A stretch of DNA of 64,000 nt, from NCBI RefSeq assembly GCF_003334255.1, contig NZ_QOWU01000010.1; one strand, given 5' to 3'. Source of the stretch: Escherichia coli. Its GTDB lineage: Bacteria; Pseudomonadota; Gammaproteobacteria; Enterobacterales; Enterobacteriaceae. The translations under genes and the position numbers were made by a program. Shown here piece by piece: positions 1 through 62,260 of the stretch. How positions within the stretch are numbered: position 1 is the stretch's first letter; each line of letters begins with the position of its first letter. Below the pieces are notes generated by a model. The model made no database searches and was not told the origin of the DNA. It was given only the letters and a program-made list of their open reading frames with translations.

Positions 1-1656
<1,656 letters not shown>

Positions 1657-59263: not shown

Positions 59264-59818
59264 TTACACTTCCTCCGGATTAGCCAGATAACCAGTGGTA
59301 TCGCCGGTCGGGCGGCTGTTGGCGTTAGGTTTGATAACGATATTGGGTTTTGTGAAATGCGCGCGCGGCAGTGGCGCGACGGCAGCAAGAGTGCCGTGCT
59401 TCTGGCGCAGCTCTTCAATTGGACCGAACTCAAGTGCACGCAGCGGGCAGGATTCGACACATATGGGTTGTTTCCCCTCGGCGACGCGCGAATAACAACC
59501 ATCGCACTTCGTCATGTGCCCTTTTTCAGCATTGTACTGTGGCGCGCCGTACGGACAAGCCATGTGGCAGTAGCGGCAGCCGATACAAACATCTTCATCA
59601 ACCACCACAAAGCCATCTTCACGCTTATGCATTGCGCCGCTGGGGCAGACTTTTGTACATGCGGGGTCATCGCAATGGTTACAGGAGATGGAGAGATAAT
59701 AAGCGAACACGTTCTGGTGCCAGACGCCATTATCTTCCTGCCAGTCGCCGCCAGCGTATTCATAAATACGGCGGAAACTGACTTCCGGGCCAAGATCTTT
59801 AAAGTTGTTGCTCACCAC
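59264..59818 (-). pseudogene. ynfG: ynfG 3' portion: 4Fe-4S subunit of DMSO-reductase paralog, N-terminal about 25 codons (first Cys cluster) replaced by prophage-derived sequence
   Basis: ORF reads MVSNNFKDLGPEVSFRRIYEYAGGDWQEDNGVW...; from KDL onward it matches DmsB/YnfG, but the conserved MTTQYGFFIDSSRCTGCKTCELACKDY N-terminus is absent and sequence upstream runs into a phage integrase gene. Confidence 0.7.
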
Positions 59819-59855
59819 TTGAAAGCGTGAGCTTAACTCATTCTAATTCAATTAC

Positions 59856-61019
59856 TTATGCTTTCTTTGCATCCTCAAAAACCTCAGGGTGGGACAAATT
59901 TGGGACATCGTCACCCAATATGTCGTCAATTTTCCTCGCGTGCTCTGTCAAATGATTAGGTGCAAGGTGTGCGTACCTACGCACCATTTCGATAGACTCC
60001 CAGCCGCCCATTTCCTGAAGTACTGACAGTGGTACACCTGACTGAATTAACCAACTGGCCCAGGTATGGCGGAGGTCATGAAAACGGAAATTTTCAATTC
60101 CTGCCCGACGACATGCTGTTAACCACGATGTGTTATAGTCCAGGCGCATCTTTCTGATGCTTGGTGTCATTGTCCCGTCAGGCCTTCTGGCAGCAGTGGT
60201 ATAAACAAACACCCAGCGGTGATGTTTGCCTATTTGATCACGCAACACCTTGCAGGCAGTGTCATTCAGTGCGACCCCAATAGCGCGGTTTGACTTACTG
60301 TCTTCAGGGTTTACCCAGGCAACACGTCGCTGCATATCGATTTGTTGCCACTCCAGATTAATAATGTTTGATCTCCTCAGGCCAGTTGCCAGTGCAAATT
60401 TAACTACAGATTTCAGGGGATCAGAACATGCATCAATGAGTCTCCTGGCTTCTTCTTTTTCCAGCCATCTCACGCGTTTGTTTTTTACGGCAGGTATTTT
60501 GATTACAGGTGCTTTTTCAAGCCATTTCCAGTCTCGCTCTGCGGCGCGCAGAATAGCCTTGATCATTGCCAGGTGTGTTGCTTTTGTTTGCGTGCTCACC
60601 GATTTAGGTATATAGGCTGGTGGTTCTTTCCCTTTTCTTAATGCAGCCTCCACCTGCAACTTCCATCTCTCCTTTGTTTTTCGGTTATACGCTTTGCTGA
60701 TAACTGAGTAGATCATTGCCTCCGATATATCCTTAATCCTTATTCCCTCGAAATGCTCAATCCAGAATGCGATTCTGGATTTATCGGAATCGATGGATTT
60801 CTTGTCGGCTTTTTCCTCAAGCCATCTCAGGCAGGCTTCTTCGAAAGTGACATCTGGCATATCCCCCAGTCTGTCTACTCGCCAGAGTTCTGCTTTTCGC
60901 TTGTCGTGCAACTCCTGAGCTTGCCGCTTGTCCTTTGTGCCAAGAGACTCCTTAATTCGCTTCCCGCCCGGGAGCGAGTACGAGGCGTACCATATTTCAC
61001 CTCTGCGGAAGAGTGACAT
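59856..61019 (-). CDS. int: Lambdoid prophage tyrosine integrase, DLP12 IntD-like (387 aa)
   Basis: [47 protein letters not shown]... closely resembles IntD as remembered; catalytic [10 protein letters not shown]...Y region present. Confidence 0.9.
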
Positions 61020-61246
61020 TTTCTTTCCTCTGTTATGCCATCACCCGCGCTCACCTGGACAGTATGCAGCGGTGAATGAAGTGCTGCAATGCAGGCTTGC
61101 CGGGTTGTGAGATAAGGTGATCTTTTACCGGAAGAATTTTTTCGGGTTGCCTGTAGTCGGCCCGTTCGTATCCAGTTAACAGCTGTTGGCCTTGATATCT
61201 TGAGAAACTTACAGGCCTCTTTGAGGGTGATACTGTGTGAATCCAT
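60875..61246 (-). CDS. xis: Excisionase-like HTH protein (start at internal Met [36 protein letters not shown]); 3' extent uncertain
   Basis: Excisionase-type HTH motif directly upstream of int; the open frame continues 145 nt into int in another frame, so the true stop or a frameshift is uncertain. Confidence 0.5.
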
Positions 61247-61280
61247 ATTTTCGCCATTAAAAACCGCCCGAAGGCGGTTG

Positions 61281-61541
61281 TCAGTTGATTGATATGCGGC
61301 GCATTTTTCGAAGGCTGGCAATATGCTTTTCCTTCTCAATTTCTGCTTTAATCATGTGTAGTTCGTTGTGATCGATTCGCTCAAATTCTGCATTAAATGC
61401 GCTAATTGAAGCGGCTCTGGTTCTCCCATCCAGCCTGCGGAAGATTACCTGCGTCAGAGTGATTTTGCAGACTTCAACCGGATAGTTGTTGGCGTCGACG
61501 AAGGACTGCCCGCGCTGGATCAGAACGAACACAGGTAGCAT
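61281..61541 (-). CDS. Hypothetical prophage protein (86 aa)
   Basis: ORF between exo and xis on the same strand; poor RBS spacing, so the call is weak. Confidence 0.3.
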   Translation of the reverse strand: MLPVFVLIQRGQSFVDANNYPVEVCKITLTQVIFRRLDGRTRAASISAFNAEFERIDHNELHMIKAEIEKEKHIASLRKMRRISIN

Positions 61542-61579
61542 TCCTTAACTGTCATATCATTTGCACCTCGTTGCTACGG

Positions 61580-62260
61580 CTATCGCCATTGCTCCCCAAA
61601 TACAAAACCAATTTCAGCCAGTGCCTCGTCCATTTTTTCGATGAACTCTGGCACCATTTCGTCAAAACCAGCCATGTATTTTTCATCCCGCTCGACCACG
61701 ACATAATGCAGGCCTTCACGCTTCATACGTGGGTCATAGTTGGCAAAGTACCAGGCATCTTTTCGCGTCGCCCACATGCTGAATTGCACCTGGGCCATGT
61801 AAGCTGATTTTATTGCCTCGAAACCACCGAGCCGGAATTTCATGAAATCCCGGGAGGTAAACGGACATTTCAGCTCAAGGCCTTTACCGTCACTGCATAA
61901 ACCATCGGGAGAGCAGGCTGTACGCATACTTTCGTCACGATAGATGATCGGGGATTCAGTAACATTCACGCCGGAAGTAAACTCAAACAGAGCTCTGGCG
62001 TCGTTCTCGTACTGTTTTCCCCATGCCAGGGCTTTGGCGTTAACTTCCGGGGCCACACCCGTGCAGACCTCAGCCAGCAGAGTGTGGAAGTAGGACATTT
62101 TCATGTCAGGCCATTTCTTTCCTGAGCGGGGTTTTGCTATCACGTTGTGAACTTCTGAAGCGGTGATGACGCCGAGCCGTAATTTGTGCCACGCATCATC
62201 CCCCTGTTCGACAGCTCTCACGTCGATCCCTGTACGTTGCAGGATAATGTCCGGTGTCAT
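61580..62260 (-). CDS. exo: Lambda-type exonuclease (Red alpha), 226 aa
   Basis: [68 protein letters not shown]... near-identical to lambda Exo as remembered. Confidence 0.95.

Follow-up and report, generated by a model that had tools for sequence, protein, structure and literature searches.

Table 1 of PMC4111918 lists the excisionase (Xis) of phage P22 as a recombination directionality factor (RDF) of 116 aa and 14 kDa, and gives 72 aa for lambda Xis. P22 Xis has been purified, and it binds and bends attachment (att) DNA (Mattis et al. 2008, as cited in PMC7498355). According to GenBank records X04052.1 and BK000583.1, P22 xis encodes 116 aa and the integrase gene, int, 387 aa, and the two genes overlap by 124 nt. 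Phage epsilon34 carries a 123-aa protein annotated as 'Excisionase' (gp24), the gene of which overlaps int by 145 nt, and in lambda the xis-int overlap is 23 nt with the stop codon counted. The subject here is the xis-int junction of a prophage in a stretch of 64,000 nt from Escherichia coli (RefSeq assembly GCF_003334255.1, contig NZ_QOWU01000010.1), which is referred to throughout as the window. In the window, xis extends 145 nt into int. An xis-int overlap of 124 or 145 nt is the standard P22-type layout, which has been on record for decades (X04052.1) and is already known.

The P22-type xis-int junction

The elements of the junction, all on the minus strand, are the following.

60875..61246, minus strand: xis, P22-type excisionase (RDF), 123 aa + TAG, from the open reading frame (ORF), its translation and homology
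59856..61019, minus strand: int, P22/DLP12-type tyrosine integrase, 387 aa, from Pfam, PHROG and identity with P22 Int
60875..61019, minus strand: probable dual-coding stretch of 145 nt including the xis stop, from the coordinates shared by the two ORFs
61026..61030, minus strand: Shine-Dalgarno sequence of int, GAGGA, inside xis codons E73-E74, read from the sequence
60875..60877, minus strand: xis stop codon TAG, built from Int codons V48 (GTA) and D49 (GAC), from the sequence

The xis gene starts with ATG at 61246 and ends with TAG at 60877-60875, and int starts with ATG at 61019 and ends at 59856. The int start codon is thus 227 nt downstream of the xis start (227 mod 3 = 2), which places the genes in different frames, with position 2 of the xis codons coinciding with position 3 of the int codons. 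Read as xis, the overlap begins at the third base of codon K76 and includes residues 77-123 together with the stop codon. Read as int, it covers codons 1-48 and one further base, and Int codons 1-49 contain the whole of Xis residues 77-123. As the Xis tail and the first 48 int codons share the same DNA, the ribosome-binding site and ATG of int fall within xis. An initial annotation of the window had described an Xis-like helix-turn-helix (HTH) ORF that overlaps the int start by about 145 nt in another frame, and had held this overlap to be much longer than that of lambda. The coordinates and length prove to be exact, and the comparison with lambda stands, at 145 against 23 nt with the stop counted in both.

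The Xis ORF matches the PHROG 2907 'excisionase' profile with E = 9.7e-44, residues 1-116 aligning to positions 2-117 of the 117-position profile. P22 Xis is 70.5% identical to the window ORF over residues 1-122 of 123 in a single ungapped tblastn piece, and epsilon34 Xis is 74.8% identical (tblastn). When 50,697 phage records were searched by tblastn with Xis, 162 were matched, and the match covers at least 80% of the ORF in 161 of these. Xis homologues in a deep protein database are 115, 116, 122 or 123 aa long and come from more than a dozen Enterobacterales genera. The N-terminal part is of the excisionase HTH type, as had been proposed: Pfam HTH_17 (PF12728) is found at residues 7-36 with an i-Evalue of 3e-08, and TIGR01764 'excise' passes marginally (29.3 bits, cut-off 28.8). 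Similarity to lambda Xis was not found, as the Pfam and PDB sequence searches with the window Xis gave no match to it and the protein does not fall into the lambda Xis family. The only match in the PDB sequence search was spurious (E = 0.29).

Three explanations had been offered for the long frame, namely a genuine extended Xis, a frameshifted pseudogene and a mis-set int start. The match over the whole ORF to PHROG 2907 and to P22 Xis bears out the first, and on sequence comparison the window ORF is an intact, full-length homologue of P22 Xis and a genuine gene. A pseudogene reading would agree with the annotation by the NCBI Prokaryotic Genome Annotation Pipeline (PGAP) of identical E. coli genomes, in which only the first 22 codons of xis (window 61181..61246) are called, as a partial pseudogene 'helix-turn-helix domain-containing protein; incomplete; missing C-terminus'. 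Decay of this gene also has a possible counterpart in Salmonella phage SEN22, where xis (1501..1638) is broken by a 1-nt deletion that leaves 45 codons. The frame of the tail is open downstream of the deletion, and either xis is a true pseudogene there or the record contains a sequencing error. However, the window ORF aligns in one piece over 99-100% of its length to the Xis proteins of P22, epsilon34, 2G7b, APSE-2 and HK446, with neither frameshift nor internal stop. Phage PhiR5_2 has the identical xis sequence (100%) and POCJ13 one of 99% identity, and near-identical full-length proteins are present in NCBI. A frameshifted or decayed xis in the window can therefore practically be discounted.

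Two variants of the protein were seen among the homologues. E. coli products of 206-212 aa have a DUF4222 (PF13973) or resolvase-type (PF00239) N-terminal part joined to an Xis of 85-87% identity, and these may be fusions with the upstream gene or start-codon miscalls. In one 116-aa P22-like Xis (protein P0072), residues ~43-64 are replaced by an unrelated sequence (SLTSLPGKPALRRFSLRCILSG), after which the normal frame returns. From its sequence, this looks like a compensated double frameshift.

The junction was compared in 99 loci with a complete int. Of these, 91 came from phages P22, 2G7b, SEN22, epsilon34, SfII, ENT47670, APSE-2, HK446, SfX, Edno5 and MS2 LVA and from 80 IMG/VR contigs. 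The latter are the 80 closest loci (85-100% identity), and the diversity of the set was drawn from the phage records and genome contigs. The other eight are genome contigs with a distant Xis, from Yersinia, Xenorhabdus, Pantoea, Serratia, Hafnia, Edwardsiella, Superficieibacter and one metagenome. Xis identity to the window extends down to 36% in this set, which spans more than ten enterobacterial genera. The distance from the conserved int start (MS[LI]...) to the end of the xis frame is exactly 124 or 145 nt in all 99 loci, and the int start is at +2 mod 3 from the xis start. Annotated excisionases that overlap int by 124 or 145 nt occur in APSE-2, HK446, SfX, SfII and ENT47670. The initial annotation had proposed alignment with related xis/int junctions as a check; the related loci, SEN22 excepted, share a long Xis without frameshift, and with such homologues on hand the feature is unremarkable.

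The two lengths are determined by codon 41 of Int. In the 124-nt class, Int Leu41 is encoded by CTG, CTA or TTA followed by A, so that xis terminates at TGA or TAA and Xis has 116 aa. In the 145-nt class, residue 41 is Arg (CGA, CGC or AGA). As the Arg41 codon abolishes the stop that is present with Leu41, Xis is seven codons longer, and it ends at a TAG or TAA formed by Int codon 48 (GTA or ATA, i.e. NTA) and the first base of codon 49. CTA, TTA and ATA are codons seldom used in enteric bacteria. The window resembles P22 in gene order, frame relation, the location of the int ribosome-binding site within xis and the long overlap, and the Xis and Int proteins are 70.5% and 70% identical to those of P22. 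It differs in that P22 has the shorter Xis (116 aa) and overlap (124 nt), whereas the window has Arg41 (CGA) for Leu (CTG), by which the TGA is lost and seven residues are gained (SEKQNSGE end). In Xis length, overlap length and stop position, the window is like epsilon34 gp24/gp23; unlike in epsilon34 are the host, the phage backbone and about one third of the tail positions.

The Int product is 387 aa, like P22 Int. Pfam Phage_integrase (PF00589) matches residues 184-355 (5e-45), the translation includes the motifs TGLRRSN, HDLRHT and RYAHL, and the protein matches PHROG 10426 and PHROG 1. In PGAP annotation, it is called intD or a site-specific integrase (WP_001387389.1). The catalytic domain, the family length and the conserved N-terminus place it in the P22/DLP12 (IntD) type. 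The Pfam search of the N-terminus gave no arm-binding family, DUF6538 at E = 0.0023 being the sole match. An AlphaFold2 docking trial, in which Xis was fused through (GGGGS)5 to Int residues 1-80 and which gave output without predicted aligned error or contacts, returned three β-strands for Int 3-25 and a helix for Int 31-51 at a predicted local distance difference test (pLDDT) score of 77-89. This predicted fold of Int 1-51, three β-strands and a helix, is consistent with the topology of an arm-binding domain.

If the true Int start were further downstream, e.g. at Met54 just past the xis stop, no real overlap would exist, and some pipelines do annotate relatives in this way, with Int proteins of 300, 334, 372, 380 or 383 aa in the records from Serratia, the metagenome, Superficieibacter, Hafnia and Edwardsiella. 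Those same loci, however, retain the conserved MS[LI]FRRG start with a Shine-Dalgarno sequence, which gives 385-387 aa. Across the family, Int residues 1-48 have 70% identity, a conservation equal to that of the rest of the protein; residues 1-51 are folded by AlphaFold2, as described above; and the PHROG 10426 and 9176 alignments begin at residue 1. GAGG or AGGAG is found 7-10 nt before the int ATG in 10 of 10 lineages compared and in all eight extra loci, and in the latter the int frame is open upstream of the ATG for just 0-18 nt (99 nt in one). Hence, the suggestion of a mis-set int start does not hold, as the ATG at 61019 gives the length of P22 Int and the MS[LI] N-terminus and the Shine-Dalgarno sequence are kept in every lineage, and a downstream start has next to no likelihood.

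Coding status of the Xis tail

A P22-type xis-int module, in which Xis has a dual-coded tail, is very probably the best overall explanation of the locus. The alternative is that only the N-terminal domain of ~75 residues is functional, and that the tail is translated read-through, the conservation of which is a by-product of Int.

The open xis frame does not in itself decide between them. Random synonymous recoding of Int left an xis frame of the observed length or longer in 16-55% of trials (39% for the window). Frame openness alone is therefore not statistically surprising, and it was dropped as evidence, so that gene status rests on homology and conservation. Over seven deep lineages, the product of the open-frame probabilities is ~3e-4, which counts against read-through as a rough value, since the lineages are not fully independent.

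Synonymous variation in int was compared at codons with identical amino acids only, in six phylogenetically disjoint pairs. The fraction of synonymous differences is 0.375 for Int codons 2-41, as compared with 0.556 for codons 50-387 (Fisher p = 3e-6). The overlap has the lowest synonymous difference among 343 forty-codon windows of int, and the value recovers past about codon 45. Codons 16-41 alone are also depressed (0.421, p = 0.002); hence the low value is not just a start-codon effect. This minimum precisely over the overlap counts against a mere by-product of Int conservation.

The Xis frame itself was examined in the deep lineages, where 13-24 of 40 tail residues are identical, as compared with 9-13.5 expected from Int conservation with free codons. 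Out-of-frame identity in the overlap ranks first among control windows of the same gene in five of eight pairs and within the top three in all eight. Read-through would also have to accommodate the presence of just two stop positions in 99 loci despite Xis identities as low as 36%, these stops resting on codons that include the rare CTA, TTA and ATA. Together, these data indicate that the Xis tail is under purifying selection in its own frame, i.e. that the dual coding is real, as far as can be judged from sequence comparison.

Several points weigh against this conclusion. The share of synonymous recodings that leave the frame open is one of them, and it speaks for read-through. None of the tests strictly parts constraint at the protein level from constraint at the nucleotide level, and part of the tail conservation is imposed by the conserved Int N-terminus. 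The low synonymous change could result from translational constraints at the 5' end of int or from mosaic recombination; the pair of the window and 2G7b, with 4/38 against 131/271 differences, looks mosaic, and recombination of this kind inflates some pairs. In an AlphaFold2 model of Xis built on a 43-sequence alignment, the tail is predicted to be mostly disordered with low to moderate confidence, apart from one helix at ~88-101, and fusion to Int(1-80) gave a predicted TM score of 0.28 and a tail pLDDT of 39-64, which is not above that of Xis alone. Read-through would further be in line with lambda Xis having just 72 aa (PMC4111918), and with the PDB sequence and Foldseek searches, in which no conserved structure or solved homologue of the tail was found. 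Set against the synonymous minimum over the overlap and the excess identity in the xis frame, read-through is nevertheless considered improbable, and a selected, dual-coded tail is retained as the reading of the locus.

Xis structure and a proposed mechanism

The part of Xis that is modelled with confidence is its N-terminal domain.

61076..61234, minus strand: winged-helix / MerR-type HTH DNA-binding domain, Xis residues 5-57, from Pfam HTH_17, TIGR01764, AlphaFold2 and Foldseek

In the AlphaFold2 model, residues 5-57 have a pLDDT of 80-91 and the order β-α-α-β-β-α, and residues 63-71 form a disordered linker. Foldseek matched this domain to BldC and to Pukovnik Xis (4j2n) with a probability of 1.00, a target-normalised TM score of 0.72-0.80 and a root-mean-square deviation of 1.9-2.5 Å, the E-values of these matches being weak (0.02-0.04). 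As modelled, the Xis N-terminal domain is a MerR-like winged helix. The likeness to Pukovnik Xis and BldC lies in the N-terminal fold of ~55 residues; unlike the window Xis, these proteins have ~55 residues in total and are without the tail of ~60 residues. In the tail, 10 of 48 residues are K or R and 4 are D or E, which makes it basic.

Like the window, lambda has xis directly upstream of and overlapping int, and its small Xis is an RDF in which a winged helix is followed by a C-terminal tail that is unstructured and basic. The last 18 residues of lambda Xis are disordered and basic, and in the excisive complex they are directed toward the arm DNA and the Int N-terminal domain, which fits the cooperativity of Xis and Int (PMC4880445). 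Unlike in the window, lambda Xis is only 72 aa, the overlap is 23 nt and no significant sequence similarity was found; the likeness is functional and architectural only.

By analogy with these systems, the winged helix of the window Xis would bind and bend the att arm DNA and steer Int to excision, as published for P22 Xis, and the basic tail may contact the arm DNA and/or the Int N-terminal domain, on the model of lambda Xis. The presence of the identical xis-int DNA in deposited phage genomes, those of PhiR5_2 and the Stx1 phage POCJ13, lends indirect support to an excisive activity of the module. The tail probably originated by overprinting, in which a short HTH excisionase was extended into the int frame. 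Growth of xis into int by this route would be expected to give just such a pattern, one frame encoding a folded domain and the other a largely disordered, basic tail.

It is conceivable, though rather doubtful, that the overlap DNA encodes two touching partners, the Xis tail docking on the putative arm-binding N-terminal domain of Int during excision in the manner of lambda, where the C-terminus of the Xis at X1 is directed toward an Int N-terminal domain. The fused Xis-Int model left the confidence of the tail unchanged, and a tail-Int contact is therefore without direct support from it. If the tail does dock on the Int N-terminal domain, each mutation in the overlap would alter both sides of the interface and so lock Xis to its cognate Int. 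Docking could then account for the restriction of the family to two tail lengths, the choice between which depends on Int residue 41 (Leu/Arg).

Prophage context, expression signals and annotation

Two further features flank the module.

61258..61283, minus strand: terminator-like element (G+C-rich hairpin followed by a T-run) in the gap between the xis ATG and the DUF4222 gene, from RNA folding
59264..59803, minus strand: 5'-truncated ynfG beside int, called 'incomplete; missing N-terminus' by PGAP in identical genomes

The module forms the left end of a lambdoid prophage, and all genes at this end of the window are on the minus strand; the genes upstream of the module include the DUF4222 gene and exo, bet and gam of the lambda type. 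Over the 4.2 kb from 59800, identity is 99% with Escherichia phage PhiR5_2 and 94-97% with three phages that convert to Shiga toxin (Stx) 1 production, POCJ13, 75/02 Stx and phiSTEC1589, and the junction is shared by 85 complete E. coli genomes. Position 1 of the PhiR5_2 record aligns at ~59806, which marks the end of the prophage (attachment junction). From these alignments, the prophage is of the PhiR5_2 / POCJ13 type and is inserted in ynfG, and its integration/excision module is of the P22 type. Unlike this att site in ynfG, the annotated sites of the relatives epsilon34 and HK446 lie in tRNA genes (argU and thrW, respectively). The phage genome in the window is lambda/Stx-like, unlike that of the podovirus P22. 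Scans of the whole 64-kb window found no tRNA or tmRNA gene, and no Rfam family reached its gathering score.

The hairpin ahead of xis, AACCGCC-TTCG-GGCGGTT followed by a T-run, has a folding energy of -12.7 kcal/mol (z = -2.66), and a similar hairpin and T-run precede xis in epsilon34 and ENT47670; a simple terminator scan did not flag 61258..61283. The position of the hairpin and T-run before xis points to a requirement for antitermination in leftward transcription of xis-int.

Structure in the RNA that might mask the int Shine-Dalgarno sequence was not detected, as the fold is no better than that of shuffled sequences (z = -0.61) and leaves the Shine-Dalgarno sequence unpaired, and RNAalifold on 14 lineages gave 0 consensus pairs. 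Coupling of int initiation to xis translation through RNA structure was rejected on the lack of a fold signal in both the single sequence and the 14 lineages. A sigma-70 scan of 59700-61700 found no promoter. The CII-type motif TTGCN6TTGC does not occur on the sense strand of the module; it occurs antisense (plus strand) at 60578..60591 in int and at 61561..61574 in the intergenic region between exo and the DUF4222 gene. With six occurrences found in the window and 6.1 expected, these matches are at chance level, and a lambda-type, CII-dependent pI promoter inside xis was rejected for the lack of a sense-strand site. In the curated P22 genome record, an antisense, possibly C1-activated promoter 'aI' is annotated upstream of xis.

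The overlap is poorly handled in existing annotation beyond the PGAP call described above. The annotation tables of PhiR5_2, 2G7b and SEN22 have no coding sequence at xis, and the feature summaries of POCJ13 and 75/02 Stx list no xis. Other pipelines keep xis and clip int by 4 to 87 codons, and on the Yersinia contig no int is called despite a 387-aa ORF. We take the missing or shortened xis and int genes to be a gene-caller artefact that arises from the penalty on long overlaps. Calls of an 'excision-defective prophage' or a 'truncated integrase' made from such annotations would mislead. The finding thus brings little biological news, and its practical value lies in annotation. As a case of dual coding, the overlap is clean and well sampled; one frame encodes a folded domain, the other a tail that is basic and mostly disordered.

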